A stretch of DNA of 61,655 nt, counting the filler, from Hausera hauseri (Eukaryota): assembly GCA_046269625.1 (NCBI GenBank). It is 10 parts of 10 records of this genome, joined end to end, with 100 filler letters (N's around TTAATTAATTAA, not from the genome) between each part and the next. Parts side by side here need not be neighbours in the genome. Positions count along the whole stretch, not along the records: positions 51,792 to 61,655 come from JBJURY010276617.1; 9 more parts are not named here. One strand, 5' to 3'. This document shows positions 18,121 through 61,655 of this stretch, in pieces. Numbering within the stretch: position 1 is the first letter of the stretch; the number at the start of each line of letters is the position of its first letter. A program made the position numbers and the translations under genes. The notes beneath the pieces were generated by a model. It saw only the letters and a list, made by a program, of their open reading frames with translations. It was not told where the DNA came from and ran no database searches.

Positions 18121-18122
18121 AT

Positions 18123-23655: not shown

Positions 23656-23814
23656 TTGCCTATCAATCGAAAATCGTGCGACAACGACGTTTGTTTACAG
23701 TTGAAAAGCTAGTTGATCTACAACATTTTCTCAAGCCGCTACCAGCGAATTGTTTTTTGACTCATTCAACGACTACCGGTGCAGCGCTTTTTATTTCTGT
23801 CAAGGTGTGTTCCT

Positions 23815-24018: not shown

Positions 24019-24019
24019 G

Positions 24020-24981: not shown

Positions 24982-25023
24982 GATCTCGACGACAATGATG
25001 ATAGTGATGGAGCAGTTTCTTTA

Positions 25024-26930: not shown

Positions 26931-26989
26931 AACTGTTTCCCCAGTCAGTGTTGGGTTTGTTGCCGACTGTTTGACAGTCTTTGCCAGTT

Positions 26990-31000: not shown

Positions 31001-31049
31001 TGAAGAAGTTTTTATCTCGCGTTGACGCAAATTACAACGTTTATTGGGC

Positions 31050-36800: not shown

Positions 36801-38443
36801 TGTTGCCTGAGGTATTTTCGTCGAATGAGTTGTCGTTGGTGGCAGTACCACAATTATCGACATTGAACTTCAACCGAATGTCAGTATTATTATTTAAAAA
36901 TTTACGGTCGAATGCGCGGCAGTCGAAACGTAATTTATATGTCCAGAAATGTCGCCAACGGTGCCTTTCCTCAAACACCGCTGACTGCAGTCAACCAGTA
37001 AGTTGTAGTGTGTGAGAAATTCAGATCCAAGAATTGCTGACTGGACGTTAGCGACTGTGAAAGTGCAGTGGAGGTTGAAAAAAAATTCAGCAGATTGAAA
37101 GATAATTTGGACGTGTCAGAAATGTGCAGCGGTTGGCCTGAATCAGTGTATAAGTGCTTGATCTTGAATGAAGTATTTTGTGCGGGAAAAGTTGATGGTA
37201 ATAAAGAAATTGCTGCACCTGTATCGATAAGAAAATTAATAGATTGTGTTGAAGGGGCAGTAATTGTAGCCTTTAGAGTAAAGACTGCATAAGAGACGTT
37301 TCGGCGTGCAGAATGTGAAGTAGTGCCTTTGCCAGAGTTTGCCGTGACCTCTGGCGGCGAACTTAGTTTTTTTGGAAAGATGAACTGGGACAACTGTGAG
37401 AAGTGAAGGCAGTACGTCTGTCATTCGTATTGGACTTGAAGGTACAGCCAGAGATACATTTACGTGCTTGATTTTTGAATCTCGCGTGGTAAGTGCAAAC
37501 AACGCTGTCCAAGGAAAACTTCTGGTTATAAAATTGGCAACCCAGGCAGAATTTCTGAGCATTAGTGTTGAATCAGCTGTGATAATAGGAGATCGACGAA
37601 CGCGCAGGCGATGGTGAGCGGTTTCGTGACGTAGAATGGGTACAGGAAGCGGCAAAGCCCCCTTGGCGGGACAGAGACAATTCGTTCAATTTATTATTGA
37701 TGTTATTGATTGTTGCATGTAATGCAATGTTTTCAGCAAGTAGCAGATTAAGTTGTTGTTCAATAGATGTGTTATCGTTAGCGTCAACTGCTGCTGAAAC
37801 GATTGGTGGTGAATTTGCATGTAAGATATCGTGTGTCCTATAGGCCAATTCGGCCAATTTTTCAAGCGGCCTGGAATCTCCCACCACGGTAAGGAGGGCC
37901 TGGATTTGTATATGTAGCGCATTAAGAAAATAGTGGAGTAGAAGATCTGGGTTGTGCTCCTTAGTGACACCAAGAGTACGCATGTGTGCTAATGACGTGC
38001 GTAAGAAGTCACTGGGATTTTGTCCCCATTGCATTTTCATTAAAGAAACGTTGCATTATGGAGTCAATTGAAGGTTCGGTCTGTTTTAATACAGCGTCGA
38101 ATAGTTGGTATAAGGGTCAGGGTGTTGAAAGATGTCTAGCAAATTATGTATTACGGCTTTTATGGAGTTTGGGAGAAGATAAAGTAAGCTGTGGGCTTTA
38201 GATAAGGAGTTTGTGATACCATTAGACTGTAGCGAGTTGATGGAAGTGAAGCCACGTTTTACTGGACTTTTCATTATCTATGAAGTATTCAGTGCAATTT
38301 GTAGAAGTATGAACAGGATTTTTGTTTGAAGAATTTGCGTCGGTAAAAATAGGTGGATGATTTGGTCTGGTGTAGTAGAGAATAGGTATTGACTTTATTG
38401 TGTTGGTAGTATCCGTGGTGTCAGTGATTGGCGGAGAGTTCAT

Positions 38444-38660
38444 TCCACCACGGATACGGAGATGTATGTTGAAGCAAGCGTGATTTGAAAAATAAGATAA
38501 AGTTTCGTTGAGATATATGATAGCGCCGTGATGGCTGAGACAAAAGTCTGAAGAACCAAGGAAAGAAATGCGGGTCCGAAAAGTGGGAATGTGCGGATGT
38601 GGTGAATTGAGGGTGTAGATGTGTATGTTATAAAAAAAGGAAAATGAAAGTGGGAGCAAT
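38444..38660 (-). CDS. Ubiquitin-like domain at the Gag N-terminus (family A copy 2)
   Basis: ~72 aa; FCLSHHGAII..ETLSYF..FNIHLRIRGG followed immediately by Met. Confidence 0.7.
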
Positions 38661-40515
38661 GGTGGGCCTGGGGGTATGATGTGGGGCCAACGCCGAAGGC
38701 GCCGTCCGACCGACCGGCGCACAGTTGGCGGTTGGAACCTCCGCCCGGCGGAGATGGCACCAAAATGCAGGGTGCCCGAATTTCCCCTCAAAAGTAGTTA
38801 TCCAAGGTGCCAGTGGGCAAAACCTCTGTTAGGAAATACAATGTCAAAGAACTTACAGAGGAAATTGGTGGCAGTAATCCAAACTTTTCGAGTTTTGGAG
38901 TCTATCATATCAACATATTCTTTTTTCAAGAGAAACTGTAACTGTAGATGGCGATGGTGGGCCTGATGGTGGAGTGAGAGATGTTTCTTGAGAGTTTGTA
39001 TAGAGAAGTAAATGAATGAGATGTTGCAGTTGACAGACCTAATACAGTTTCTATCACTGTGGAATTTCCGATCTGGCGTTGAACGGCAACTTTATGGGCT
39101 AGACGATTATGCAAACATAAAGTAGGTCCAAAACCGTTTTTACAATCATACAAACGACCTTCGAGTACAACGGCGAAAGTATATTGATCAGCTTTTAACA
39201 GCATATAAAGATCTGTGAAATCAATAAGTTTGGTAGTAAAACGTGTTTCAATAATCGTGTTAACATGTGTGACCGACTTGACAGACACTCGATCACGGAA
39301 ATATTGAATAGTCTGACCAATGATACTGTATATATCGGTTAATTGTGTCACACCAGACGGACTTAGCGCTGGTGGAGTGCTACGAACATCATTCAGGTCA
39401 ATGAACTGATTCTTTTTTATTCGAACTTCGATGGCATCACAAAACGGTAACTATCGTTCTATTAATTGGTCAATATTACGTCTTTCGTATACTTTAAGCA
39501 CAGCGTTATCATTCAATACTCGANNNNNNNNNNNNNNNNNNNNNNNNNNNNNNNNNNNNNNNNNNNNTTAATTAATTAANNNNNNNNNNNNNNNNNNNNN
39601 NNNNNNNNNNNNNNNNNNNNNNNAAGTGTCGTCATGAGATTCTTCGAATAATGCATGCTTGACCGAATATTCGAGTTAGATTAATTAAATATTCGACTTG
39701 TAAGCTCGAATTAAAATATCTATCATAATATTCCGATTGACCATATATGACTTCCTATCCAGCCCCGCTATTAGAATTATCAATTTCCGCTTCACTGAGC
39801 TTTAAATGCACATTTTGATTAATTAGATATATTGATTTTGTATCTATATGAATCATTTGCATGGAATAATTTTTATGTATCAGGTGGTTTTCATATATGA
39901 GGAATCGATTGTCGTTGTTAAAGTTTTCGAATAGTTCGAACTTCGATATTCGAGCTTGAAAATAATCGAATTTCGAATATCTGACTTGAGATTCGTGATC
40001 GCTATATTCGATTTTCTATCTGCCCCGCTAATTATAATATCGAAATTTGACTCAATAGGACCTAAAATACTTATGGAAAGTCTACCGCAGTTGAACTTTG
40101 GATCAATATTAATCGAAAACTAATCAAAAAATTTAAATTTTAATTGCACATTCATGTACTACACCATGTTTGTGTTCGAATGTACCCGGTCACATGTACT
40201 AATCATCAATATTGGAAATATCGGAAAACCGATATTATTGATTTTTGCACACTTGCACATGTGTTTTTGCACTGCACAGTATATATTAAGGTGAATCTCA
40301 ATGTGCTCTATCTATCTGCACTGACCCCAATCGATTCCATCAATCCTACGCTGCACAATGACAAATATGTGAAAAGTGTAAAGTGCCTTGGTAACCGTAT
40401 CCAAGAGCATACCTGACGCGAGTATTTCACTGAATGATAGTACATCAAGTACTGTACCCGCCAGTATATGTGCCATATTAATAATATTGATTTTCAATTT
40501 ATGACGGAAAGTCCT

Positions 40516-41599: not shown

Positions 41600-41775
41600 T
41601 AGCACTAGCACGTGCTATTGCCCTCTAAAATCGCGTGACCAGCCACAGCTGACGTCATTGAAATTAGACATGCACACATACGCGCCACGTACACTAAATC
41701 CAATTGTTACCCTTCTATTGGTCGTGTGATCACAAGGTAATACGTACATCAACAACCACAGGTATATATTTGGTA
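41600..41775 (+). promoter_or_regulatory. Putative Pol II promoter
   Basis: CACGTG, TGACGTCA, GCCACGT, CCAAT/ATTGG and TATATA clustered just upstream of the ORF at 41808. Confidence 0.45.
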
Positions 41776-41807
41776 ATCTTTCTTATTCAGCTCCTTTTTT
41801 AAAAAAA

Positions 41808-43825
41808 TTGTCACAATTCAATTTTCAATTAAGCTCAACGCAACATAAAACGAAATTACAAAAACTCAGAACAAACCAGGAATTCGACCAAAGACAGCAG
41901 TTTAATTTCTTGTTCCCCAATCTCAATCCAGCACAACTACACAAGACTAAAGTGAGAAAAAGTGTAATGGCACGAATTCAGAACCATAAGAAAATATTAA
42001 AGATACAACATCAAAATGTATTAACATCCTTATTTCCACTGTTTCACGCCGAGGTCCTCACTATAGAAGAATTACTATCTCAATATGGAAGCAAAAATTC
42101 ATCCATGTCTCATACTATGGCCAAAAGCTTCTACAACAAAACACGAAGACAAGCCATCCTGTATCCAAAATTGCTTTATCCCCATGTTGCGAAGATCCTA
42201 AATTATCTTAAGTACGGACTCAGACTAAATAGACATACAGAAATAGGAAGCATAACCAAACCGCATCAGTTCGACCTCGCTGAAATAATCACCGAATGTC
42301 CGTCAGTTGAAGGAATCATTATTCATGTTGCCAAGGGCACTATAGTTTTGAAGACACCAAAAAATGTCCTGTACACCATGTCGAACATCGCCATTGTTTT
42401 CGAAGAGGAAACACCTGCAATTAGCACGCCATTAAGTACTAATACTATCCTAATTAGACCAAATAAGATCCCAGCCGTATTAATGATTGAATGGATCCTT
42501 CCAGAGAGACACTTGGCATTACCCAGTGTGGTGCCACGGTCGCGGGCGCAGCTCGTTCTCTTGCCAGAGGGCAGATCGTCAATTCTCAATTTCCGAAGAC
42601 ATCTCCAATTTGCCTCATTTAGCAAGACAGAAGATCAGCAAACCTTCTACTGAGGCAAAAATTCAACTTTAAGCGGAAATAGCAATCTCTCCAGCATGTG
42701 ACTCTCTCCTTTTGAAAGCAAACAACGGATCGATATCTCAATGTTCAGCTTGGCAATTCTGGATACGATGTTAGGAAACTGTTGCATTCACGGTTTCTGA
42801 AATTTACGATGAACAGTACGATGTTAAAAAAGTCCATATGTTGAATATCATACAGTAATGTAAGTTGTCATGAAAGCATTGAGCGGCCAGTTTCCAGATA
42901 TTTTCATGTAATGACAGACAAAATGTTACGGGAAGTCATCACTTCTTGTATCCATCCGTCTTACTTCAACTAATCTTCTTTTCTCTAGATTTTGGATTTA
43001 ACTTTTGGGAATCAATTAAATCATAAAACCCAGGCCAATGATTATTGCTCAAAGCCCACCAGAACTTATCATCGAAACAAAGTTGAATTATTTAAACACT
43101 TTGCAGTCCAATACTATCAGAATATTGACCGTATCATTGGGTTTCATGGCAAACAAACTACAAGTTCCGATAGCAGTAACCATCTCGGACACAAAGCACA
43201 TGATATTCTACAAAGCTTTAATTGTTAATCGGAACAAAATACATACTTGCAATACAGGGCGCCACGGTATAGATTTTCACACTTTGCAAACCACCGAAAT
43301 TGATATATACGAGGTCACAAAGGAGGTAATACAGTGGCTGTTTGGAACAATCGTCGTTGGAGTAGAAACCCATAAAACGTTGCAGTTGTTCGACATACCC
43401 AAAAATTATTTATTTTAATTACCTGCTAAATCAGTCGGAAGTTACCGGTAAAGCATTTTGTGCCATTGATATAATGAACGTTGCCAGAGTTGAAATTATC
43501 CAGGATTAGAAAGCAATGTGTTTATGAACAAGATATTAGAGAAAAATTGGAATTAACCATGGATATACTACAAACTATTAGTGACATAAAACATGTCAGT
43601 TGGACACCGAAGGACCTGAATGCAACTGTTACCGATGTTGGAGAATTGTTTTACGATCGAGATAAGTACTTACAGAATTTTGGATGGACTTATAAAATTG
43701 AAGCCAGTATTAGGAAACCAAATTGGGATCAAATCGTTGACGATCCAGACATAGATGAAATGGACCTCAATATCCCTGAGAATATTGAAGATTGTTTAAA
43801 TATTCAAAAATCAGTGTCGAAATAA
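41808..43825 (+). pseudogene. Unknown long coding region, partly disrupted
   Basis: 281-, 126- and 114-aa co-oriented ORFs; no family recognised. Confidence 0.4.
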
Positions 43826-44181: not shown

Positions 44182-47100
44182 AGCAGACAGTAGATTTGCG
44201 TTTAACACTTCGTATGAGAAAATTGGCTCAACTGTGATGGAACCAACCGACCTCGATGGAAAATATGCTACCAAATTATCTGTACCTGAGATGTATTCCA
44301 AAAGAAAGCTGAACGTAGACAGGTATAATATATGTCTCTCTTGCCTCGGTGATGGCTGTTTTAACGACATGATGTGCAGGAAAGACTTGTGATCAGTTTG
44401 AATCACAAAGGGTCGAAAGAAACGTAGGTGTTTAAATGTTTTACTGCCAGGACTATGGCGAGTAAATTACGGTCAAATGTTGAATAAGGGCTTTCGGGTT
44501 GTGTAAGCTTCCTAGAGTAAAATTCTAATGGTTCATCGGTGGCTGTGGTCAAAGCATCGGTGGTAAGTGTAAGATTTGCGTTGGGCTTTGGATAGGCCAG
44601 TATTTCGACGGATTTTAGTCCATCGCGTAAATGATCAAACTTGGTGACTAAATTAGGAGTCCAGTGAATCAATTGCCTCTTTTTTCCGGATGACAAATGT
44701 ACAAAAGGTGCTGTGAGCTCAGAACAATGAGGCACGTATTTGTGGATGAAGTGGAGTGTGCCTAAACACTTCTCATGTCAATGATAGTTGTTGGTAGAGT
44801 TGTGTTCTTTAATTGTTGTAGTTGATCCGGTTGTGGAGAGTGGCCGTCCGGAGTGATGACGTGACCTAGGAAATTTACACGTTTTTGAAAGAAATAACAA
44901 TTGGAGAAGTTGACTTGCAAATTACTGTGATGTAGTCTGTGAAAGATAATACGAAGGTGTTCTTGATGTTGTTTGACAGACGTACAGCAACTAATATATC
45001 ATCAATATATGGATGAGCGAAGTCAAGGCCTGAGAGTACGGTATCAATGTGCCGTTGAAAAGTTTGGGAAACACTACGTAAGCCAAATGGCATAAAGATA
45101 TATTCGTAGAGGCCAAATCGAGTAATTATAGCAGTTTTGAAATATTATCAGGTGCAATAGGAATTTGATGATATGCTTTATGCAAGTCAATTGTGGAGTA
45201 CGTGTTATTGTTGGTAAGGCTGCACAGGATGTCATTTATGAGAGGTAAAGGGTAAGTATCCAGGACTGTTTGATTATTTAACTGACAGTAGTCACCACAT
45301 GGTCTGTAAGTGCCATCTTTCTTTGTTACTACATGCAATGATGAAGCCCATAGTAATTTGGATCTTCGAATTATGCCAGCCTTTTCGAGTTCATTGATCT
45401 CTGATTCAATGGCTTTTCGTCTGCGAGGTGACAGTGGCCTTACCTTTTGTCTGATAGGTCTTTGGTGTTCGGAGACTGTGGTGATAAGTTATGGAGTGCG
45501 GCTTGAAATTGATGTCCTTCTTAAGAGTGCGGAAGCAAGAAGTTTTGATAAAGGATTTAAGATTGGATTCCAGCGATAAGAATGATGAGGGCATATTAGT
45601 GGAAGAGTCGGTGGCTGTAATTGATGTAGAATCACGCAACACTTTGTTAATGACATTCGGTTCAATCTATTGTTTCAAGATTGATTTGTTCTCACTTGAT
45701 GAAATTGAAAATATTGATGAATTATTAAGCGTCTTGTTATCAGCCGATAAGGCGCATGTCAGATTGACATTTGAATGAACAGAGGAAGACAAAGTGTCCG
45801 ACTGGTAATTTGGTGAGCATTTGTTAGAATTTGCAACGACCTTTCTGGGCAGGAGGCATTTATGCTTGCAGTCGACTAACAAATAGTATGCAGCCAGGAA
45901 ATCGGAGTCTATTACGGGCTATCTAATATTGGCTATATGAAATTCCCAAGAAAATTTCCCTGGTAGGTTGTAGAATATGAAGGACAGTTTTATGGTACCT
46001 ACAATGTTCAAGGGTTGATCACAAGTAGTGAAGAGTGGAGGAGAGAAAACTGTGTTAGATGTTGGAGTGAAAGACAAAGTACGAAGTGAAAAGGCAGCTC
46101 CCGAATCAATAAGGAAGTCTATGTGTGATGTGTCTCCAAATAGCAGATCAGCTTTCAGCAGAAAGACTGCAGAGGCGGTGTTGAAACGGCCAGAATATTA
46201 AACGATATTGCCTGTACCAGAATGTGCCGTGGCATCCGGTGGCATTATTGGCTTTTTGAGACTAGTTGGGAGAAAGAAGAGCAATGGTGAGTGCGAGGAG
46301 GTGAAGAAAAATGAGAGAAGCTAGAATTCTTTTTATAATGTTTACAACCAGGCACACATGATCTAGCCCGTGACTGAAAATTATTGTGATAGACATAAGT
46401 GGAGTTGTCTACAGCGTACCGTTCGCTGTAGAACCGACAACCCAAAAACACTTCCTAGCATCCATTCGAAATCGCGTGTGATAAAACAAGTCATGCGTCC
46501 GACATGTGAAATGGATCGAGCAGTGTCTGGAAGTGGTTCTCTCCCTTAGAGGTCTGGTTTTGCTTCGTCGAGGCCTATTAAGATTATTTAATTGGGTAGT
46601 AATGGCTAGAATCAACTTCTATAACTAGTCAAACTATCGCTGCACCAATTGCAATTGTTGTCAGAATGAAGTGTTGTCGGTGTGTGAAAGTGTGTGAGCG
46701 GTTGCTGCAGCTAATGGTTGTTGACAATTAGACTGAAAAATGTCAAAACTTTTGTCTGCCAATAAGGCGAGCTTTTCAAGGGCTGTTCAGTCATCTACTA
46801 CAGTGAGCAGCGCCCTGATGGAGGTAGGTAAAGATAAAAGAAAATACCGACGAAAAAGATCGGCATTGTTTATGGTAGTGACGCCTAAAGAACTCAGTTG
46901 AGATTGCAGTTTTCAGGAAGTCCGATGGTTTTTGATTTCCGATGGCGTGTTCCTTGAAGTATTTCTGAATTATGCTGTCAATGGAAGAGTCGGTGATATG
47001 CAGAACTTATTCATAAAGCATATCATATGGAGTCGAAGAAGTGAGTATGTCAGCAAGGTAGTTGATTTGCTGCTTGATGTTAGCTGAAAGTAATAGCAGC

Positions 47101-48790
47101 AAACTATTCGCCCGCAAAAAGGAGTCTGTGATATGATTGGCTTTAAGCCATTGCAAATGGAACTGTAACCAAGTGCGACTCGACTTGGTTTTATTAAGAA
47201 AAAAGTCTGTGCAAGGAAGATTTGGGAATGTAATTGGTGTGGGGTCGGCATGGCGACGACCAAATCTGATATTTGTGGGGTTTTCCACATAAGAAGGATC
47301 AGGGTCCGACCCACCCCGTAAGCGAAAATGAAGCATGAGACAGGTGTCTGGACGTTTGTGGCATACGAAAGATGAAAGGGAGTCTGAAGGATGTACTATA
47401 AGTCCTTGATATGTGAAATAAAAATAAGAGATGCTATATGATGAGGCAGTGTTATATAAGAACTGTGCTGTCTCGTTGAGTGGAGCTTGTAAGGTTGTAA
47501 TGTGTTGGTTGTAGCTAAAGACCAGGTAAGATAATTGTGGTAAGGTCATCCCAAGGGAACGATGAAATGCAGGGGGCTTGGGCGGTTACCTTTTGGAATT
47601 AAGAAGCGGTTCGAGTGTACAGCCGGGATAGCGGTGGCAAGTGATGATTGGGACAAAGGAAGATCCAAAGATGTTAAGCTTACAAACCCTTTAAAATAAA
47701 AAATGGTTTTAGCCAGGAAGGGCTTGCATATGCGCGAAAAATGGTCACACTGGTAGGCGCGAATAAATGAAAGAAATCTCACCCACGTGTTTAGATGCCG
47801 CTGATGATGGAATATCTGCCGATCGATCGGTAAGGTTGCTGTAGTCTCACAGTACGTCCATACAATCAATACGGTGGTCTGATCCGGAAGGTTCGAAGTG
47901 CAACATTTGACAGTGAGCGGCGATTGGACAGACAGACACGTATTTCTGGTGTATAGAGTTTGCTTGGCACTAACTTCATCGTCTTGCAGGACGCGCATGC
48001 CCATTTATCATCGTTCAGCGATTCATGTTGCGAGCGATCAGCCCCATTCACAATGATCCCGACGGAATCACAGTTGTACCACTGGTTTTAAACGTGACAC
48101 AAATCGTTTGAATCTTCTTTAGACGTATTTCGAAGAACGTGTAAATCGTCTTTAGAATCTGCCTCTACAGAAAGCACTTCAAATCGCCCTTTCAACTTAT
48201 GTTGTTCATCAATTGAGCAGCACTTAATTAGACAAATAATCTCTGTCCGACAACCGAAAAATTGACAGTTTACTGTATACGTTATTGTCGCACTCTTTCG
48301 TCAGGATGTGAAGCTTCCTTTTAAGTTCGTTATCATTTAACCGAAAGATGTTCTTGACAACCTTCGGAAATGTTTTTGCTACTAAATCAATTAACTTTCC
48401 ATCGTGGTCGGACAACTTTTCGTAGTCAGTGGTTATTAGATATTTAAACAAGTTTATCCAAAGGATTTCATCTTCCTGAGACTTAAATACACGATTTAAT
48501 ATGCACCACGGCAATGAATACAACATGACTGCGTTATTGCTTGAAAACCTTTTCCAACTGCTATATGACGATGATCGACTAGAATTCTGTGAGGAATTTT
48601 CTGTACTCTGACAATTAAATGCATTAAGAGAATGAATTTGAGAATTAGTTGTTGAACAAACGTCATTAGTTTGATTGTTTGTCAATTCGGAATTTTCGTA
48701 ACCATTATTTAGGGGCAATTTCGATCGGCACTCAATGTTTGCTTTGAATTTCTGTTTGCTCGATCTGGCAACACTCTTTTTGTTGTCCAA
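44182..48790 (-). mobile_element. Ty3/Gypsy family A copy 3 (upstream ORF, UBL-Gag, PR, RT, RH), decayed
   Basis: LMLHFRLRGG; Gag near-identical to copy 1; FLIDSGAAFSL (PR); KKDGTYRPCGDY, TIDLHKAYHQIPI, MPFGL, YIDDIL (RT); LTTDA, TDHKS (RH). Confidence 0.93.
47310..47549 (-). CDS. Ubiquitin-like domain (80 aa, Met to LRGG) at the Gag N-terminus (family A copy 3)
   Basis: MTLPQLSYLVF..FYFTYQGLIVHPSDSLSSF..LMLHFRLRGG versus ubiquitin RLIFAGKQLEDGRTLSDY..LHLVLRLRGG. Confidence 0.8.
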
Positions 48791-48879: not shown

Positions 48880-51117
48880 CCGTCAACTGTTTTGAACTTC
48901 TTCGCCAGTTGTTTTATTCTGTCTCTGTTGAGTTGTTAATACATTCTGAATTAGCTCTCCATTGATGTACGTATTTGGGGAATTGTGCTGACACGTATCA
49001 TATATGGGCGACAACGATGACACAGTAACAACTGGGATTTTTATGCTATAATGGGATTCTGTGCTACCATTGGAAATCACACCACCTACTTCTAGATCTC
49101 TAACTTTACCGATTTGATAAGGAGGACTTATATCAACTCCACAAACAATGACTGATTTATCAGACACATCTTTGACGGTATCATTGTACGAAAATTTTTC
49201 TGTATAATGAGATGAAAAACACGAAAGAGACGTCACACTATCCGTTAAGATGTAGTTCATATATTCAGCACCACTCGTTCCTGGATAGACCAGCCACATT
49301 ACTTGAATGGGAGCCGGTCTTAATGCAAATATCTCATTTCTGGCACCCTTTGTGTATCCGTTCTTGTTGACAAGAATGTATTTTATCAGAAGTTATTTTA
49401 TCGGCAGCTTTAACATCGCATTGTATGGTGTGCAAGTCAAAGAAATGCTCGGTTTCTCGGAGAATTTTAACACGGAATGTCGTTCCATTGTCCGACGTTA
49501 ATGAATAACAGAAAATTTCCACTTTTGAACTATCGTGTTAACCAAGAATGCTCTGCATCAAATGACTGGTGGGGTAATTACAAAAATCGGAACTGACATA
49601 GCCAATTCGTAATCGTTCACCGAGTAATAATTTTGAATTGAATTTATACTTTGTTTTACGAAGTAGAGAAACTTTTTCAACGCACAGATTTGCGTGCTTT
49701 TCTGCGATATGTCTTCGTTGTTCTGGTGTTAAAGGATACAACATGGTGTGGTGAGGATGGACAGATGGAAGGCATCTCATTTCTAACTGCTCTTGAACGA
49801 TAGCTTCCAATCGTTTCATTTTATCATTATAATCTTGCGAGTCGCAAATAATCTGTAAACAATGGGCTAAATTACAAAATGCGTCAAGATAATTTGGCTT
49901 AATTTTTAATGCGGAACGATAAGAATTAATTACTTCATTTATGTTCCCTGTGTCTATAAATGCTATCTAAATTCGAGTGAGTATCAGCAAATGTTGGATT
50001 GATTTGAATAGCTGTCTGATAACATTGCATAGCTGCATTTACGTCCTGCATTTCCTTCACAGTGTTTTCCATATTGGAATGAACATCGGCGAAATTCGGT
50101 GAAATTCTAATCGCTTCTCGATATTGCATTAAGGCTTCATTTAACTTTCCTTGCAATTGCAACATGCCAAATTTGAATGTGCAGCTACAAATTCCGGATA
50201 TACAACTGCATACGCATATACAACTGCATTGCTTCTTCCGAATGACCTTGCTCTCGTTTAATATTGGCAAGATTATTTAATGAGTCGGCATGACTTGGTT
50301 GCAATCTTAATGCCGTATTATAGCATTCCTCAGCTTCTGATACTTTTCCTTTCTCTTTCAGAGCATTTGCAAGATTACAATAAGCGTCAGGAAAATTCGG
50401 CTGCAATTCAATGGCTCTTCGATACGTATCTATCGCCAAATCAACAAGATTTTGTTCGTAATAAACACAAGCCAAATTCCCATGAATTATGGCATTATTC
50501 GAAGCTAAATTCAACGCCTTTAAATATGCTGTAACGGCTCTATCGAATATCCTTGCTTCCTTAAAAACATTTCCTAGATTTATATAGGCGTCTAAAAATT
50601 TTGATCGACAGTTTTTTTAATGATGAATGGCAAGCCATATTTCTGATTGTGCGTTAAAAACATCCAAGGTTACTCCAAGCAACAGAAACTTGTAAGCACG
50701 TTTCTACTGCTTTTAAATATCAGCTATTCGCTACATCCAATCTTTCCAAAGCCTTAAATAAATTGCCTAAATCACTACGAATGTGGTACAAATCGGGATT
50801 ATTATTCAACACGGTCATATGTTTGCTGATAGCTGATTCTATATGACCGGCTGCAACAAATTCCGCTGCCAAATTCAGGAAATAATCGATAAATTTCGGT
50901 TTAACCCGAAGAGTGTGTTTGTAATTTTCAGTGGCATCGGCCAGTTGGCCTTTTTCTTTTAAAATATTACCCGAACTGGAGTAGGCTTCGGCCATTTTGG
51001 GATTTTGTTTAATTGTCAAATGGCAGAAAAATATCAATTTGTAGAATTTTCTTATTAGGAGTCGATCGAACTGAGTAATAATAAAACTGCATTATTGTAC
51101 GGTTCTGATTTCCACAG
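48880..51117 (-). pseudogene. OGT: O-GlcNAc transferase, intronless, disrupted and 3'-truncated
   Basis: VLLLLSSI; AEAYS..GNILKEKGQL; [46 protein letters not shown]; [14 protein letters not shown]; [22 protein letters not shown]; MWLVYPGTSGAEYMNYILTD; many stops and frameshifts. Confidence 0.95.
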
Positions 51118-51691: not shown

Positions 51692-51791
51692 NNNNNNNNN
51701 NNNNNNNNNNNNNNNNNNNNNNNNNNNNNNNNNNNTTAATTAATTAANNNNNNNNNNNNNNNNNNNNNNNNNNNNNNNNNNNNNNNNNNNN

Positions 51792-52050
51792 ATGATTGCA
51801 AATTTATTTAGAAATGTTTGCCCAACTAATTGGACTTTTGGGTTCCATTTAAACATTGGTTTTGACATTTGGCCAAAGGCTCCTGTACTACCTGGATCTT
51901 TCGTAGATGGCGAATATAACTGTCCTCTTATAGTTTGAGGTATTAAATCATTTTTGATGTAAGACATCTTGGAACCCGTATCAATTAACGCATAAACGTC
52001 CAAATCCTCGATGATGATTTTGGCTAAGGGTCTTCCTTCGATCACGGTTC
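51792..52050 (-). CDS. Retropepsin aspartic protease domain (truncated at contig end)
   Basis: RPLAKIIIEDLDVYALIDTGSKMSYI. Confidence 0.88.
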
Positions 52051-52729
52051 CAAAACAGTTTGATGTTAGTTTAGAACGTTTAGTCACCGATATTTTGTGT
52101 CCGGTTATTCTTACTTCTGAAGCGGATACTATGTTTTCCAATAACTGTCTTAATTCTCCGTTTGGATATAATTCGTTATTTTCCACGTGCAATTCTTTTA
52201 TTTCATGAGTACTAATTAGCGGTTCCCAATTGTTAGTACGTAGTTCGGTATGTTGGAAGGTTTTTAATTTTGGGTTGTCCCAAACTGTCGATCTAGTTTC
52301 AATATTCTTAGATTCTCTTGGTGAATATATCATCTTAGGATCATCCGTGGATTGGCGATAAAACATTTTCCGTAAAATTCCGTATAGTTTCGTTCCTTCG
52401 TAAGGGTCTTCTACATTAATTGTCCTTTTACAAATTTCTGCCTGATATAAACTCATGGATCGTTTGTCACAATATTCGTAGAATGGAGCGGTAGGAGGTA
52501 ACATGGGCAATGGCGCTTTAACGACAGAGTACATCCTATGTCTATTTATTCCTGAAATTGCTTCTCCTCCCTTAGGCTTGTCATCATCTAAGTTATTTCT
52601 TCGTGTAGTGGATTTTGTAACTTTTCGTTTTTGTTGAAATATAGGCCTTCCTCTTCGTTTATGATTATGATATCTGACATGACGTTCTACGTCTGATTTC
52701 CACCTACTTTCTTCGTATGCCTTTAAAAA

Positions 52730-54545
52730 TTTTCCAAAAGGCGTTATGATTGCGGTCAATATTTTACATGAAAATCCAGTTAGTGGAAATATTTCGTATC
52801 CATTTATTACTGCTGGGATGACTGCCTTAATCATTTGTATTAGAAAATATATCGCCAAAAATCCTGATGCGGCCTATCCGAAAATCAAAAATCTTCCCCA
52901 AATTTTGTAGAGTATTTCTGTTGTTACTATCTGATAATGATTTACGCCAAGTAGTGAATCCCATCTAGCCTAATATCTGGTGTCGTCTACTACAGATGCC
53001 ATAGCCCGATTTAGCTCATGTGTTCGTTGTCGTGAGAAGGCAAGGAATTGTCTAAAGGACTCGATTTTCTTTGGCCTGTATATACTTTTTGACGAGGTGT
53101 CTTTAAATTTGCCGTCTGTAATTCCTTTTGCAAGATTCGTCCCTGTTAGCTTGTTGGGAGCTGCAGTAATACCTCCATTAGGTAAACTAACCCAGTCGGT
53201 TTTGCTCCGTCTAAACATCGGTTCTCCTAAGCTTGCTTTACAGTCCTTAAGAATGGTTGGTTGTGTCGCGTTATCCAATAACACCCTCGTTAACGGCGTA
53301 GCTAATCTCGGAATATTCTGATAGATAACAGGGCGTTCCTGGATACAACGTTTTTCTTCTACGTTGATGGGAACTTCTCTCTTTTCACATTCATATGTTA
53401 GCAGTACTTCGCCTGTGACCCGACCGAAGATTCCTTCTCTCATGGGAATTATTGGAGAAGCTAATTCTGGGTTTGCATATATAAGAGCCATTTTGGTTCT
53501 CATAATCTCTGTATCCAATTTGCAGTCATTCATTATCATTTTGTGATATAATTCCGTTATTCCGACTTGTCCTTTATAGTAGAAGTAATCGTCTCTATTT
53601 TTCAGGTAATCTTCAATCCGAACATCCTGCGTTTGCAATTTGTAAATTTTTACTTTTATTTTTGTTTCGGCTACGAAGAACGCTTCATAGTTAGTGGCGA
53701 ACATCACAACATCACAACGAGTCATCATCTCCTTTTTATGATTTTAAGTCCGTGCGGGTCCGAGATTAATATAGTAGGTGTAGGGTGTTCCGATACATCT
53801 TCACGTGTCATTGAGTTAGTTTCTGATTTATCTACATATCTTTTTCCTGTAGTTTCATTGAACTTTAGTTCTTTACTTTTAATAAAATTACAATTTCTTC
53901 CAGAAGGAGGTTGCCATATTATGACCGAGCTTCTAAAAGCACATGTTCCGTCTTGTATATGACATTTCTGATTCTCAGTGTATAATTTCCGGATACTATG
54001 GAACATTACCTATTGTGATCGCATTTCTGATTCATAGAAATCCACAATCACAACGTTTGATTCTAATCCTTTTCCGGTATCGTATTCTGCTCCATTACAA
54101 TGTCCGCTATGCATATCCAACCTTTTAGCTACTACTTTGTGTGCTCTGATTATTTTTCCGGGTTGCATTTCCAGTCGCATGCTGTCCCATTGTATCCTTC
54201 CGGTTTCCTTAGCTTGTTTGCAATGCTGACGCTCTAAGTTCATCGGAATTAAAGGAGTGGTAGGCTTAATTATGGAGGAGTGTCCGTGTATCAGTCCACA
54301 GTGAAAAATATCGCGTGACCGTTTTAGCATGCACTCCATTCCATCTAACGATACCAATTCTTGTTGCTGATATAGGAAGTAACTTTTCTCTTGTGTTTCT
54401 AGTTTGTGCGGTCTAGCATCCTTGCAGGCTTCTAGGTCCATTAAGGAATATTTCTGTCCTAATTTAAACTTGTCACAATCATAGACGGTTACTGCACTTA
54501 TATGCTTTATTAACCTCATCAATATAAGTAAGCTAATTAGCCAAT
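52730..54545 (-). pseudogene. Chuvirus-like (class III) envelope fusion glycoprotein
   Basis: Signal WLISLLILMRLIKHISA|VTVYDC..YSLMDLEAC..ECMLKRSRDIFHCGLIHGHSS..C; GEVLLTYECEKREV..C..PV..TPLTRVL..C; C-terminal AASGFLAIYFLIQMIKAVI..INGY hydrophobic anchor. Confidence 0.82.
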
Positions 54546-55259
54546 TTGATTCATTTTTCCGACCCCCAACGTCTGAAATTGTCAGGCTACGTAGCATATC
54601 GTCGAGTTTATTGTTGCTTCGTTTGTCTTCCTCCTTGTCAAATAGTTTTGCCCAATTTACTTCGCAAGGCATTCTTCTTGCTGCTTTCCGCGCTAAGCTT
54701 ATAGCTCGATTGATTTTATTTCCTCGGTTTGGATTTATTTTGATGGCTAAGTACAGCAAAACTTTTCTCAATTCTTTATTCATGTTTTCTACCATGATCT
54801 TTTCTATTACTGACTCATCGGTTAAGTTACTTTTTGACAGTTTGAAACGTGAACTTTTCATCATTTTGGCTGCATCAAATATTATTTTTTCTTTGTCGTC
54901 TAACACATCTCCTCGAAAACTAGAATAATTTACAATTCGTATAACATTTTTTATTAGCTCGTTTAATTCTTCGTTATCTGGGCTAAGAGTCGGAATCGAC
55001 ATATGTCTAAACTCTCTAATTATTTCTCCGTTATAGTCCACTTCATTCCGCATCTTTCTAGGTCTACTTGCTGGACTTTTTGGTCTTGGGTCTCTGGCGG
55101 TTATTTCACTCAATGGTACTAAATTTATATCGTATTGTTCCTTATCTTCGTCCGTTTATAAATACTCAAAATATAATGCAGCGTCTCGGACTACCATGAT
55201 TTGTCCTACGCATTGTTCTGTTTTGGCTTTACGTGTAGCTTCTTCTTTAGTCTGTTCGT

Positions 55260-55490
55260 TAGCTGTCACTACCACTATGCGATTTGTTTCGTCAGGAATA
55301 ATCCCGACGTCTATTAATTGTTCTAAGTCGTCGAGTATTCTATCTCTAAAGTAAAATCTGTAGTTTAACTCGTTGGTTCCACCATTGTTTATCAGCCATT
55401 GTCTTACGTCCCTTACGTAGGAATATGTAGTCAACTCGCATTCTTTTTTGTCCATCCACTAGGATGATATCATTACTTTTATCGCCAGCG
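55260..55490 (-). pseudogene. Internal ubiquitin-like domain in the family B polyprotein
   Basis: IKVMISS*WMDKKECELTTYSYVRDVRQWL..YRFYFRDRILDDLEQLIDVGIIPDETNRIVVV follows the beta-grasp pattern; no terminal GG. Confidence 0.6.
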
Positions 55491-58329
55491 CAGGTTTAGC
55501 CCTCAACATTTTAGCATATTCCCTTATCAAAAGTTTCGGCACCGTACCATAGATTGTGCCTTCGCTGGATAATTTAGTTAGAGTTGGAATAAGTTGTCGT
55601 AGTTTTATTTCAGTAATATTTACATTATTTAACTCAATTAAATCCTCTTCAGTTAGCGCTGAATCCAGTAGCATCTCCTCATTAAACCTCTCGTCCTGCG
55701 GATATGTTTCGATTTCGTTTAGTTGTACTGGCATCGTAGTCCTTGCAGCAGGTATCTCATCGAAGTATGCATCCCATTCTGGCTCATTTGCAACATTTGG
55801 AAATATGGCGTCTGTCCCAATTGTTTTTGCTCTCTGTACATTTTCCCTAATATATTTCAATCTTGGTGGTATTTCTTTCATTTGCGTAGTTTGGAAACCT
55901 ACTGCGTTTCCACAGGCATACTGTATCATTTTCAGTAATTCTCCTAGTTTGTTAGAGTCAACCAGCCCTTTCTGGTGATAACCTGTCGTCTTTGTACAAA
56001 TTCTCGTTTGTTCTTAATTTCATATTCGGTAAAAGCATATTTATTTTGGTAGACTTCAAGTTCTTTTGTTATTTCATCTAACCTTATCGTTCTTTGTTTC
56101 GTTTTGATACATGTTTCTTATACTTTATGTATCCTGGGCATCAATTGCCTCATCTGCTCATCACTGATTTCTGCCATTTCCACCAATAAATAGGCTAACT
56201 CGTACATTTCATTTACAACTTTTGAATCAGGGTCCATTGCATCCGATAATTTCTTTACGAACTTGTGTTTCTGAAAACTGAAATGTGGGTCGTTTCCTAT
56301 TTCTATCAACTTGGTATGGAAATTCTGGTCTGACCCGGCCATCCATTCTTGAGGTTTGTGCAAAAACTTTATTGCGTCCGTTAACGTATCTCGAAGCCTT
56401 GGACAAATGTCCAGAATTTCAATGTCTTGTGCAGAAATTTCGTCGATTGGTTGTTCTGTTAAGTATTGTACTCCTTCTAGTCTAACAATTTTTAACTTTG
56501 AGTTTACATCGTGAATTATGTTCTGTTTTTCCGCAAAATTCGTCTCTGCGATCAGTTTGTAGATTTCCTTCATCAGTGACGCTTCCCGTTCCTTTTCCAA
56601 AAATTTTAGATGTCGTAGCGCTTCAAATTGGGTACGGACGTCTATTTCTATCCGTATCGTGCCAAGGTCATGCGCATTCTCTTCTAATTGTTTCTTTACC
56701 GCTGGCTCGCTTTGTGGAAATTTGGTTTTGCGGTTTTCTAGCAACTTGCTTAATCGCGTTATTAATTCGCACCATTCTGACAGTTGATTTGCGATTACCG
56801 ATTTCGCCATTATGGCTTTATCTAGCATTTTATAGGCATCTTCTAACTCATCATCCGGTCCTTTTAGGAAATTTATAACTCATCCAATATAGCTAAACTC
56901 GTCCTTGCATTCGTCCAACTCTATGATACAAGCCTTTATTATATATTAAGTCTCCTCATGGTTTGTGGACATCATTCGGTTCTTCAAGCTATAAATTTGT
57001 GCTCGATTTTCATTTTCTATCTTCTGCCGATTTTCCATGTTTGTATATTGTTTGGGCGTAGCAAATGCGACTTTTATCATCTCCGTTAGGGGAGGAATAT
57101 CGAACGGGTCTATACCCAATACTTCCAGATCGATATTACTGCGATGGTTAACCGGTTTTTCCCTAAGCCTTTTAATCATTGCATACCGAATTTCGTTCAT
57201 GATACGTTCTAAGTTACAAACTACTCTCTTCGGTTTTGGGTTCTATTCTAGAGTAGACAATAGCGTTTGAGCCTCAGTGACTTTTACGTCAACTCTATCT
57301 TTCTTCTTATTCCATCCTTCTAAAAACTCGATTCCACTTTTAATCCACGATTCCAATTCGTGTTTTTATTTTAATACTATTTCCGGGGACACCTCTTCAG
57401 GCTGCCTCACATCGATTGCTTCAACGAACTTCCGTTCGCTACGTAATTTCAAGCTTTTATATAACTTCTGGGCGTATTGCTGCTCTTTCCCGGATATGTC
57501 GACTTGTTCATTAATCTGCTTGAGCTTCTCTAAATTTTGCTGTAATATTTCAGGCTCTAAACAATAAATTCTCATTTTCTTTAATTCGTCGGCGTTTTTC
57601 TATGAGCGTCGGATTTTCCACTTTTTTGAATTAAAATCGTCATTTATCTGCCGTTTCTTCCTCACTAATGGGAAGTGGGCAGATTTCGTTAATTTCATTA
57701 ATTAACTCTATCGGCTCGGCTACTCCTACCGGTGTGTATGAACCAATTTCTGGTGTATCAAAACTATGCTCCGTATCACCTTCTTCAACGACATTCGAAT
57801 TTTCCGTTTTTTCAATTTTCTCTCTGGTTATTTTGGAACGTGAACGACTTCTACGTTTGGTTTTTAGTGAAGGGCTACGGCCTCTATTTTTCGTAATTTT
57901 AAGTATTAGTGGCTCCATAAATTCTTTTTCCGCTGTATCATCTTCCGTAAGCTCAGCTACTTTTCCAACTGCAAATTCAGGCTCTGCGTCTAAGTCGACC
58001 GCCGTCGATGTGCCTGGTTTATCAGATGGCTTATTGCCTGTCGGAACACTCTTCTTCCGAGTCATATCACTTCGTTTAGGTGCTATTGTGCGTTCGTATT
58101 CGGTCTCGGGCTCTGCTAAGCCATGATATACTTCTAGTAACCTCAACTTATCTGCGTACTCTCTTCTGGCCATCAAGATTTGTAAGTTCGCAGTGGCTGG
58201 CTGAGCATCTAAGAATTTTCTCAAATCTTGTATATCGATGATGGTGCCTGTATCTCCACGAACGCCGTATTTTGCTTCCAACTTTTCATTAATTCTAATC
58301 ATACTAGCCTTATTTGGTTCAGTAAATGA

Positions 58330-59558
58330 AACGCTACGTGGGTTTGGACATGACCTTGAAATGTGTCCTTCTTTGCCACAAGTAAAACAAACCAAATTCC
58401 CATTTCTGCCGACTATCTGTCGACCGCCTTCGTTCACTGGTGACTTAGATCTATTTATACCCTTACTATACTCATTTGATAAACTTTGCACATTGTCGGC
58501 ACTTCGTCTATTTTCGTTATTTCGCTTATCACCGTTTTGATTCGAGTAGTTCGAGCCTTTATAATTTCCTCTATTCTTATCCCAGTTAAAATCTGATCTG
58601 TTCGTATTAGTATAATTATTACTTTGACCATTTCTGTGACTGCTATTATTATTTCGGTTCCCGTAATTTTTGTTACCCGTAAATCGTCTGTCATCTCTTC
58701 CACGATTATCATTCCGTTTTCTATCGTTACGATCGTTTCAATCGTTATTTCTATCGCTTCTATCGTTGTGTCTGACGTATCTATCCAGCGCCATTTCTAA
58801 GTCTTGAGCTAATTGTAAAGTTCCTTCAAAATGTTCAGGTCTAGCCAAAATCAATTGTTTAACTAAATCTCGTGACCAAATATCAAGGATTAATTGAGTC
58901 GTCATCATAACGTCTAGATCTGGCGGTGTTGCCTTTTCTGCGGCTTCGCATTCCGCATTTGTTTTGGCTCTAGCTACGTTGGCTATTATTGACTAACTAT
59001 TAGCAAGTTTTTTTTAACGCGAATGCGAACTGGTTTACCGATTCACCCTTTTGTTGTACTCTATTTTGATATGCCATAAGTTTCTATTGTGGCGTTACTG
59101 TCGGCAACAATTTACGGTTCAATGCTTCTACCAGGGAGGACCAAGATTTCTTCTCATCATTAGTGAGCTCATTATAAGCGTCAGCGGGTAAGTTTTTCAA
59201 ATACAATGACAAACGTTTAATCATTACTTCGGTAGTGAGACTAGCACCTTCCGTCTGGGTTTCCATCATATGCCGGCAGGTTTAGAGAATCAAAGGTAAA
59301 GATGTCCAGTTTCTGCGCTACTGGTGGGTTATCTGCTGGCATATTTATCTCTAAATTTGCTTTATTGGTCTTATGCTTTTCAAGTGGGATTTTAAATTGC
59401 TTGTTTTGCTCAGTGACGTCTAACTCAACGCTATTCTCTGAATTTGAACGACTATGTAATTTCTGTGTATCTCTATATGTATTTCTGAGGGTTTGACGTA
59501 TGGGCGAATTATACTTTAATACTAAGTTTACTTTTGACTTATCAATATTTGTTCTCAA
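58330..59558 (-). pseudogene. Gag with CCHC zinc knuckle (family B)
   Basis: LPAYDG; LSLYLKNLPADAYNEL..SWSSLVEAL; R/N/D-rich linker; VCFTCGKEGHISRSCP. Confidence 0.88.
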
Positions 59559-59708: not shown

Positions 59709-59726
59709 GTCCTCGTGTGGTCGTCA
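59709..59726 (-). promoter_or_regulatory. Primer-binding-site-like sequence
   Basis: TGACGACCACACGAGGAC two nt after the LTR end ...TAACA; one mismatch to TGGCGACCAC. Confidence 0.6.
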
Positions 59727-59728
59727 AA

Positions 59729-60422
59729 TGTTATATATTGGGGTGGCTCTTACTCTTCTCCCACTATATAACAATATTTATGCTGAAATTATTCTTTATT
59801 CACAGGTAAGGTCTACCGTAATCGAGTAGACAGATTGTGCCTTTTATTTTAAAATGTGTTCTGATTGCTGCGCCGTGCAAGTTACAAATTCTCCTCTTAA
59901 CTATTTAAGGTTTAATATATTTTAAAACCCTAGGGGAGTCTAATTACCCTTATGGGGCAATGCAAAACTAGAGAAATTTTAAAACGTATACAAACAATTT
60001 AATAAAGAAAAACCACAATTACCAGTACTGAACGGATACAACACAATAAATCACTCAGTAAATATATCGTCAATAGGTTAAGCAATACTTTCAAATCTTT
60101 GACCTTCTCGTTTTCAGCTGATCGCTAACTGTCCTCTGTTCATTTTTTGGTCTCTGTTTATATATTTTTAGCCTTTCCGTTCAATTTCCCTTTTATAGAT
60201 TAATTTTCGTTTTAATTTCCGTTCTTTTCAATTTGTTATTCTTTTATTGATATTCTAACTACATATACGATTATTTTAAATTTAACATACAATCTATTGA
60301 TAATTTCGCTATACAGAAATTTTCTTCCAAATCAATAATTATCTACAATTAAACTGCGAGGAAATGATTTATTTACAGACGTGCTTGTTCATCAATTTTC
60401 TGCTTATTCCATTCCTACAACA
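59729..60422 (-). repeat. LTR of family B (~694 bp, TGTT...AACA)
   Basis: Starts right after PPT AGGGAGGAGAAA (60423-60434), ends before the PBS-like site; TATATAAA near 60160 and AATAAA at 59795-59800. Confidence 0.75.
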
Positions 60423-60489: not shown

Positions 60490-61394
60490 TTATCTTAACA
60501 AGTTCATCCGTCGGCGTAAACTAGCTTCGGAATCCGTATCAGTATGATCTTGTCGGGTTTCGATCTCATAGCTATAATGAGGTTTTATACGTACCTCTCT
60601 TGTATATCCTCCATTTGAAAAGTACTTTAAATCGGTCGCTTCGGCTCTACACACTGGGCAAGTGGTCTTACCATTTTCTAGGGTCCACTTTTCTAGGCAT
60701 TCCCGGCAGTATTTATGTCTGCAATCTTTGTTATCTAGGGTGACATATCCTTTTTGGAGGTTGGCCCCACAGACTGGGAACTCAATTTCTTCTCTTTCCC
60801 ACTTCTCGTCATCCAAGTCTACTCTGATGGTAATCTCGATTTGTTCAAATATTAGCCCTTCTTCGTCTCGATACAAGTATCCATGGATTCGTTTCTGTTT
60901 TGGGTCCACGACGCTTCGTCTTGGGTCACAACTTACTGCCACTAATGTCCAATCGGCCGTAGTCTTGTAGTTCATAATCCTCTGCATCGGGTAGTCTCTA
61001 TCTCGTAATAATTTCTTTGTTTTCTCGGCGATAAGTGGATGCATATTAATCTCTCTTATTGCTGCTATTCCTGAATAAGGAATTTTTAGTAACGATATAA
61101 CTTCTTCTATCCGATATCCGATAAGGATACATCCATATAGGCAATGGGCCAATTCATTTTGTACCCTTTTGATATCTTTTCCTTCTTTCAAGTTTTCTTT
61201 ACGGATTCCTGTTTGGTCAAAAAAGTCTCTCTGATTCGTTTTCTTGGGCAAATCATCGTGTGATATAATTCCGTTCCGTCTGTTTCCCTGATTGAAATTT
61301 CCATCGGGATCTTGTCCGCTTCATTGCCTTCACCACAGCTTACGGAAATAATTTTAGTATTCCTAGCGTGTGGAACCAATCTATAGGAGTACAA
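60490..61394 (-). CDS. REX4/ISG20-like pseudo-exonuclease fused to a C3HC4 RING finger (one frameshift near 61230)
   Basis: KIISVSCGEG..GIRKENLKEGKDIKRVQNELAHCLYGCILIGY; (F)PVC..CRHKYCRECLEKW..TCPVCR. Confidence 0.75.
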
Positions 61395-61655
61395 GGATTT
61401 TACTATCTCCGCTTCCTATGGCCTATGTCGAAATTCTAGGGGTGGTAACAGGGTTTTTCTCAGTTCCTCTTTTGTTACCTCAATAATTATTTTGACGGGG
61501 AGGGCAGCGACTCTGAATTCTAATTCCTTATCTTGTAAGTTTTCGCCTGGGATCATTAGGGTGCTAAACCTGTATTGTCGTCATTTTTGTGTAATCCATT
61601 CTTGATTTTGTAATCTGTAATAAATTTCTCCATCTGCAAAGTGGATATACAAATC

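Follow-up and report, generated by a model that had tools for sequence, protein, structure and literature searches.

Introduction

Burro/GYPSM1 elements are giant Ty3/gypsy long terminal repeat (LTR) retrotransposons of the planarians Schmidtea and Dugesia, and in the available text of the paper that treats them (Arkhipova and Yushenova 2019, PMC6431247, where Jurka 2007 and Grohme 2018 are cited for them) they are described as the first case of an env lying in frame between gag and pol. According to the same text, an internal region of up to 25 kb carries an ORF1 of 4,873 residues that encodes Gag, a Ubi2/SUMO-like domain, a BCL2-like domain, Env, protease, a dUTPase-like domain, reverse transcriptase (RT), RNase H (RH) and integrase (IN); the Env matches mononegavirus fusion proteins, RING, BIR and ankyrin motifs are also present, and decaying copies with stops and frameshifts are found in Dugesia japonica (PMC6431247). 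The subject of the present work is an element on the minus strand of the last contig (positions 51792-61655) of a 61,655-nucleotide stretch of DNA from Hausera hauseri (assembly GCA_046269625.1; this whole stretch is called the window below), which we take, with a probability of roughly 85%, to be a copy, now decayed, of a Burro-like Ty3/gypsy LTR retroelement of order gag-X-env-protease, X being a long spacer, whose intact form would likely be expressed as one Gag-X-Env-Pol polyprotein that host signal peptidase and the element's own protease are predicted to cut apart.

Other elements also bear on the comparison. The nematode endogenous retroviruses (NERV) of Sacco et al. 2022 are said to have a continuous gag-env-pro-pol open reading frame (ORF), while the Anakin elements of Dezordi et al. 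2020 are reportedly BEL/Pao elements that carry a chuvirus glycoprotein, with env following pol. "Ancient errantiviruses" of GAG-ENV-POL order with an ENV of HSV/gB type have been described from Nematoda, Bryozoa and Platyhelminthes (Chary and Hayashi 2026, PMC13524379), and in the part of that paper available the Platyhelminthes C1a group comprises Smed_errantivirus_1-6.

Sequences and searches

The window is made up of contigs chained by artificial spacers of the form N44-TTAATTAATTAA-N44, one of which occupies 51692-51791. The contig under study ends at 51792, inside the protease, and holds about 8 kb of the element; since it stops there, this copy's RT, RNase H and integrase lie outside the window. 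The DNA of the window is animal in character and rich in repeats (satellites, other retroelements and a decayed copy of O-GlcNAc transferase, OGT).

A HMMER search of 1.84 billion protein representatives with the env-protease piece gave 415 matches at E ≤ 0.001, of which the best 150 were listed, and Pfam scans were made of 21 of these listed matches together with three cluster members. The close relatives are metagenome protein records, one of them under the label of a bacterial metagenome-assembled genome (MAG). The env tree was built with FastTree from 135 rows, with local supports only, 17 of 151 candidate rows having been dropped for covering fewer than 240 query residues, and several of the profile and pairwise scores were compared with those of 1000 shuffles. 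Contig pieces from two sequencing runs were also placed on the stretch: run X1, possibly of the same species, does not count as independent support, while X2, which contributes a small share, served as a check; contig depth summed over such runs is not a copy number.

Gene order and state of the element

On the minus strand of this one contig, to which all coordinates of the element refer, there follow one another a gag capsid, a CCHC zinc knuckle, a spacer of about 3.8 kb, a signal-peptide-like stretch, a fusion glycoprotein, a membrane anchor and a DTG protease, and the order claimed by an earlier, sequence-only reading of this DNA (gag, unknown stretch, signal peptide, glycoprotein, transmembrane anchor, protease) is upheld by Pfam, profiles, hydropathy and motif alike. 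Part of a broken Ty3/gypsy Gag capsid, at 59003-59260, was located with a profile made from four Gag-Env-Pol relatives (37.7 bits, E 6e-11), this being the sole site in the window at E ≤ 1, and a single CCHC knuckle lies at 58342-58392 (Pfam zf-CCHC, E 1.5e-06); the copy therefore shows the combination of a Retrotrans_gag-type capsid with a CCHC knuckle that is a trait of Ty3/gypsy elements.

Pfam, the relatives and the env tree together identify the ectodomain at 52877-54492 as that of a class III (gB/chuvirus-type) fusion glycoprotein. A profile search of the env translation, which the sequence-only reading had proposed as a check, found PF24664 (Monjiviricetes fusion glycoprotein) on both env pieces, with model positions 9-228 at 54531-53878 (E 2.8e-16) and 266-622 at 53731-52652 (E 8.7e-40); identity to intact relatives is 26-33%, with a best value of 34% among the matches listed, and a PDB sequence search with the env alignment gave 0 matches. 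Upstream, an internal signal peptide is predicted at 54493-54546 (hydropathy peak of 1.9 over 11 residues, predicted cleavage near 54490), and by eye a hydrophobic stretch stands ahead of the conserved [AV][YF]DC start of env in all 11 of the 11 relatives printed. Downstream, a membrane anchor and a subsequent amphipathic or hydrophobic helix occupy 52727-52873 (hydropathy 2.15, core at about 52870-52814, aligning with the anchors of relatives), a stop-free cytoplasmic tail or linker covers 52037-52726 in the same reading frame, and an aspartic protease cut by the contig end covers 51794-52036. The protease motif, LIDTGS at 51988-51971, is clear, although the Pfam RVP match at 52036-51932 (E 0.0029) reaches 18.3 bits against a cut-off of 20.7. 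The distance from anchor to DTG is 305 residues in this copy and 130-390 residues in 12 relatives.

A single frame without stops, 52873-51794, holds both the anchor core and LIDTGS. The sequence-only reading had put both in an ORF at 51740-52858, which was right as to the common frame and wrong as to its end, since 51740 falls in the artificial spacer beyond the contig end. It had also taken 55929-53725 for one frame broken only by stops and closed by a single frameshift at about 53727: the frame is indeed continuous, running over 56013-53728 with three stops (55461, 55158 and 54012), and a change of frame does lie between about 53758 and 53737, where intact relatives align across it, but it is not the only one, four more lying upstream (near 59255, 59000, 57640-57480 and 55990) to make about five. 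A second frame, 53743-51794, has two stops (52972 and 52876). Within env the stops are those at 54012, 52972 and 52876, the last directly before the anchor, and because of the latter two the ectodomain is severed from its anchor in this copy. On account of these stops and frame changes the copy cannot make a polyprotein; it is decayed.

Contig pieces of run X1 cover the stretch in 30 of 30 bins (20,542 pieces: 1315 at 99+%, 3842 at 95-99%, 8899 at 90-95% and 6486 below 90%), and 1361 pieces of X2 cover 29 of 30. By the X1 coverage, gag, the spacer, env and protease each belong to repeated sequence that exists in many variants, which makes a one-off nested insertion unlikely.

Relatives and the native layout

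Among the 10 best env matches listed, eight have a Pfam aspartyl protease downstream of env on one and the same chain and P0010 has a DTG motif there, while P0009 ends at its anchor. RT and RNase H come behind env-protease in P0003, P0006, P0007, P0019, P0021, P0153 and L001, and the full Ty3/gypsy order of protease and then RT-RNase H-integrase is found in P0003, P0006, P0019, P0021, P0153 and L001; the pol domains concerned are RVT_1, RT_RNaseH and Integrase_H2C2, as in Ty3/gypsy elements. A knuckle or Retrotrans_gag stands ahead of env in P0003, P0010, P0011, P0012 and P0021, two of which (P0003 and P0021) have knuckle, env, protease, RT, RNase H and integrase in one chain. Two loci, L001 and L002, agree with this order. 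In L001 an open frame of 3426 residues begins with a ubiquitin-like and a Bcl-2-like domain, continues with signal peptide, env and anchor, then has three proteases before RT, RH and IN, and is followed by a separate DEDD-exonuclease ORF, while L002, with gag, CCHC (one Pfam stretch), ubiquitin-like domain, Bcl-2-like domain, one stop and env, is collinear with the element in the window. P0153 has ankyrin. The intact relatives thus read as a single polyprotein that contains an internal signal peptide, which bears out the earlier proposal of a Gag-X-Env-Pol order with Pol behind the Env cytoplasmic tail.

As to where else such sequences occur, scans for related loci with the window env piece gave no match in viral or metagenome contigs, a scan with a five-protein alignment gave two loci in metagenome contigs and none in genome contigs, and none of 1562 candidates scored in a word search aimed at longer relatives of the anchor-protease ORF. 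P0003 (HBK71150.1), a retroelement polyprotein, is recorded as a hypothetical protein from a Flavobacteriaceae MAG, and is probably animal DNA in a bacterial bin.

In the env tree, another check that had been proposed, the window groups with the relatives in which env is followed by protease: it is sister to P0003 (support 95) within a branch of 19 rows (support 94) that holds 14 of the 15 such relatives. Three weaker matches, P0022, P0043 and P0075, have env after pol and lie outside this branch; P0043 has a DUF5641, which we take to be the integrase tail of BEL/Pao elements. Since nine of the 10 closest listed relatives have the same fusion and the env tree groups the window with them, the sequence comparisons support env between gag and protease as the native layout of the element, not a product of nested insertion.

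Comparison with Burro and other systems

Several Burro traits are present in the window copy, namely a mononegavirus-like env between gag and protease and a ubiquitin-like domain upstream of the Bcl-2 position and env. The likeness extends to the succession of CCHC gag, ubiquitin/SUMO-like domain, BCL2-like position, mononegavirus-like env and protease, to a RING motif alongside, and to the occurrence of decayed copies; gag-env-pol in a single open frame is seen in P0003 and P0021, while the window copy is open only from anchor to protease. On the side of the differences, the portion on the contig shows no MATH, BIR or ankyrin, the candidate LTR is short, and the BCL2 likeness is unproven in the window copy. 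The element is called Burro-like here, and not a member of Burro, because it has one knuckle and because pol, length and host are outside the evidence; that it works like Burro and is kin to it is probable, and the host is likely a flatworm.

With the C1a errantiviruses the element shares gene order, a class III env before pol and, by eye against the Schmidtea rows, the cysteine and motif pattern of the env N-terminus (PMC13524379, as far as its available text goes). Written as a regular expression, that pattern is found in the window and in eight of the best 150 of 415 matches, all eight being among the best 14. The element differs in not being intact, and neither a polyprotein nor cargo in the spacer is mentioned in the portion of PMC13524379 at hand. 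NERV are alike in being metaviruses with env before pol and an RNA-virus-type glycoprotein, but the single nematode env row compared from the same partial source (Clat_errantivirus_1) is, by eye, without the N-terminal pattern of the window. Troyka (PMC12440569) and the rotifer ORF3 elements (PMC5408684) were also considered as matches and, judged on the available portions of these papers, do not fit.

The Burro-like assignment has to be set against a number of points that weigh the other way. The likeness to Burro was judged from the published description, and the one knuckle of the window copy contrasts with two or three in Burro. The phylogenetic placing comes from env, since RT, RNase H and integrase lie off the contig, and in the env tree the window is a long branch (1.46); the env-then-protease label used with that tree was assigned by regular expression and also tagged an unrelated row, P0149. 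No contig piece among those of X1 and X2 covers the entire stretch, and no second LTR copy was found on the contig, nor an LTR pair or target-site duplication shown. The domain before env scores 1.6, 3.5 and 6.5 bits against profiles of the Bcl-2 position, with 3 of 1000 shuffles above 6.5, and is without the W..xGGW motif of the relatives. Finally, the OGT copy on the neighbouring contig points to no one phylum.

Alternative explanations

The alternative that survives best, though we judge it improbable, is that the element belongs to a separate Gag-Env-Pol lineage of the same layout in a host that is not a flatworm, tied to Burro only through a common env. Such a lineage would be in keeping with the finding that the POL tree does not unite the GAG-ENV-POL elements as a monophyletic group (PMC13524379, in its accessible part), with the low identity to even the best listed relative, with the origin of the close relatives in metagenome records or under one bacterial MAG label, and with the failure of the OGT copy to single out a host phylum. 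The likeness does however go beyond env, since gag, ubiquitin-like module and env are collinear with those of relatives that also bear Bcl-2-like and ankyrin domains, which is the Burro cargo set, and among the env rows in the available material of PMC13524379 the pattern agrees with those from Schmidtea and, by eye, not with those from Bryozoa or Nematoda.

Very much less likely, and already largely refuted, is that env is a chuvirus-like endogenous viral element or second element nested in an ordinary gag-pol retrotransposon, or that the arrangement is an assembly chimera. The copy is decayed, its contig is short, the window is a concatenation of contigs, and free chuvirus-like glycoprotein genes are common among the listed matches, all of which would leave room for such an origin; but anchor and protease lie in one stop-free frame, the same fusion recurs in nine of the 10 best listed matches, and the tree places env with the fusions and not with the free glycoproteins. 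The sequence-only reading had itself named a nested env as the outcome that would overturn it, and no internal repeat bounding env was found on the contig.

That a BEL/Pao element of the Anakin kind has captured a chuvirus glycoprotein, the precedent that the sequence-only reading named, is hardly credible: the same Pfam glycoprotein family does occur in mosquito BEL/Pao elements (PMC13524379, available part), but the superfamily is another one, the window copy has neither BEL/Pao gag-protease domains nor env after integrase, no BEL/Pao-type Pfam domain was found in the window pieces or close relatives scanned, gag matches relatives with Retrotrans_gag, the pol of the relatives is of Ty3/gypsy type (RVT_1, RT_RNaseH, Integrase_H2C2), and the BEL-type matches, P0043 (DUF5641 then env) included, branch apart in the env tree. 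The sequence-only reading had also entertained a possibly independent retrovirus-like lineage, and this suggestion is not supported, the same layout having been published for Burro/GYPSM1 (PMC6431247) and for GAG-ENV-POL errantiviruses (PMC13524379), as can be seen from the accessible text of both.

The spacer between knuckle and env

The earlier description of the spacer (there put at about 3.5 kb) as unknown holds for its upstream part, at 55621-58341, which has low-complexity and helical stretches, contains two frame changes and is without a family match: its pieces 56121-56879 and 56949-57242 gave no match in Pfam, and an Atlas search on the spacer gave a best score of 0.83 and nothing usable. 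It does not hold for 55255-55620, where there is a helical and ubiquitin-like module with one internal stop. This was recognised with a profile made from P0011, P0017, L001 and L002, the window being left out of its building, which scored 33.6 bits against a shuffle maximum of 6.5. The ubiquitin-like piece of the window has no direct Pfam match and 0 PDB sequence matches, while the L002 copy matches Pfam ubiquitin at E 0.0047, under the cut-off.

A helical domain at 54619-55038 is assigned to the Bcl-2-like position of the relatives by its location and by an all-helical model of low confidence. In the relatives a Bcl-2-like BH1-BH2 region stands directly before the env signal peptide (P0009, 9-80; P0004; P0017; L001, 773-1255; L002, 2539-3021), and for P0009 the part before env matches Pfam Bcl-2 at E 0.00096 and Bcl-xL chains at E 0.01; a GGW motif is present in the pre-env domain of P0004, P0017, L001 and L002. 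In these five relatives the env signal peptide could serve as the tail anchor of the Bcl-2-like region. For the window domain, a likeness to Bcl-2 seen by eye was not upheld by shuffle statistics, and the likeness is one of position only: in pairwise tests 43 to 896 of 1000 shuffles scored equally high, a five-row model of the domain had a predicted local distance difference test score (pLDDT) of 45 with no hit in a fold search at E ≤ 0.001, the piece had 0 sequence matches in the PDB, a three-row profile had no Bcl-2 match, and an Atlas search with the domain gave nothing usable. A single-sequence AlphaFold model of 56013-53728 had a pLDDT of 31.

Candidate termini and the RING ORF

The LTR that the sequence-only reading placed before gag is a candidate only. 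It is short and unconfirmed, at 59729-59886, with TG at 59886, CA at 59729 and two AATAAA signals. A 15-bp imperfect inverted repeat (TGTTATATA...TATATAACA) lies at 59729-59773 (minus strand), at the 3' end of the candidate LTR, where it adjoins a stretch resembling a primer binding site at 59717-59726; this latter resemblance is weak, 9 of 12 letters matching, by eye, the tRNA-Arg primer site in a row of the supplement of PMC13524379, in so far as that is available. A purine run at 59889-59898, directly before the TG, is a candidate polypurine tract.

On the far side of these features, at 60493-61655, lies an accessory ORF that is broken upstream of 61320 and ends in a C3HC4 RING finger (60777-60646; Pfam zf-RING_2, E 3.6e-08). 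Its part 61649-60973 shares 71% identity with 29173-28506, which lies on a different contig of the window, where the corresponding ORF is 3' of integrase, coming after RNase H, integrase and a signal-peptide/anchor ORF, and it is weakly like the 3' DEDD-exonuclease ORF of L001 (E 0.01, 8 of 1000 shuffles as high). Because the purine tract and the TG...CA separate it from gag, the simplest view is that the RING ORF is likely the 3' accessory ORF of a neighbouring, tandem, collapsed or circularly assembled copy; alternatively it may be an upstream accessory ORF, as in one Burro-like element (PMC6431247).

Additional units in the relatives

Between one and seven DTG-type motifs lie behind env across the relatives. 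P0004 and P0006 have three each, P0011 four and P0153 seven, L001 has three Pfam stretches, and some of these are behind integrase. Extra units of signal peptide, ectodomain and anchor, in frame behind integrase, occur in P0003, P0006, P0153 and L001 (2-10282); in L001 there is also such a membrane unit between two proteases, and P0019 has the signal-like stretch. These units have in common a CxxLxPxTxY-like motif, which suggests, with weak statistics, an FN3 domain: four of six units scored above or near the best shuffles, three of the six having the top score. Against the PDB, the best FN3-related match had E 0.045 and the top match was a dsRNA-binding domain; three of the nine matches are to proteins that presumably contain FN3. 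Extra membrane proteins and several proteases within the pol of the relatives are possibly undescribed, no mention of such units or of repeated proteases having been found in the available text of PMC6431247 or PMC13524379 or by literature searches, although the primary Burro papers may describe more cargo.

Other elements in the window

At 27362-32652 (minus strand) lies the 3' half of a related decayed element, with RNase H, integrase, a signal-peptide-like stretch near 31000, an ectodomain and an anchor near 29750-29670, that is, the same arrangement of integrase and then membrane unit as in the relatives. Its integrase is closest to those of L001 and P0003 (39%), and its terminal ORF, the one 71% identical to 61649-60973, bears a weak resemblance to a DEDD exonuclease (0 of 1000 shuffles as high). 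Related decayed elements of gypsy type lie at three places, 11246-12979, 34800-38800 and 44250-47600 (minus strand), with no env in view; in each, by eye, a short ubiquitin-like stretch ending in RGG or RGK stands just before gag.

The OGT copy, at 49541-51091 (minus strand), is decayed, apparently intronless and spread over several frames; its TPR part is 80-88% identical to animal OGTs, with many phyla represented at that level and cestodes ranked 9, 10 and 20 of 120 matches. Polinton/Maverick-like pieces were recognised by eye at 17800-26950 (minus strand), including fragments of a B-type DNA polymerase, present in duplicate (17700-20560), ORFs that resemble capsid genes, a stretch like a chromodomain, and an rve integrase (26405-26944). 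Satellite arrays occupy 1-5000 and 5100-11200, one derived from a 6/12-bp microsatellite and one with a repeat of roughly 200/240 bp, and on a separate contig one or more broken long ORFs with no obvious motif lie at 41730-43822 (plus strand).

Proposed processing of the polyprotein

For the intact form of the Burro-like element we infer a scheme of processing by signal peptidase and protease, modelled on translocation into the endoplasmic reticulum (ER) and on the polyproteins of flavi- and alphaviruses. Gag and X would be made in the cytosol; the internal signal peptide would then thread Env into the ER lumen and be cut by signal peptidase, the cleaved signal peptide leaving X tethered to the membrane. 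Such a tether would fit a Bcl-2-like domain, since Bcl-2 proteins are normally tail-anchored. The Env anchor would stop transfer and so leave protease-RT-RNase H-integrase on a cytosolic tail, the element protease would free Gag, accessory domains and Pol from their membrane-tethered precursors, and Gag, Env and Pol might thereby be gathered at one budding membrane. Host ubiquitin and cell-death pathways would be the likely targets of the ubiquitin-like, Bcl-2-like and RING domains.

It is possible, though on balance doubtful, that Burro-like elements are viruses whose polyprotein crosses the ER membrane several times and whose entry machinery has two parts, the class III fusogen and one or more attachment proteins, in frame within or behind pol, built of signal peptide, FN3-like domain and anchor (P0003, P0006, P0153, L001 and 32652-27362), with up to seven protease-like domains doing the cutting and the env signal peptide also acting as tail anchor for a Bcl-2 homologue that was captured.

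Significance

The placing of env before protease and the polyprotein are already published, and the inference is sound; the window copy contributes a further family, multi-copy and decayed, to a kind of element already described, which for a specialist is a small surprise. Published tests of polyprotein cutting or of particle infectivity were not found in the available text of PMC6431247 and PMC13524379. Where env is read in frame between gag and pol, the protein is bound to take up a membrane topology that differs from the retroviral one, and the intact relatives L001, P0003, P0021 and P0153, with their conserved internal signal peptide, multiple proteases and additional membrane proteins, make the questions of how such a polyprotein would be cleaved and whether it would serve infection concrete.

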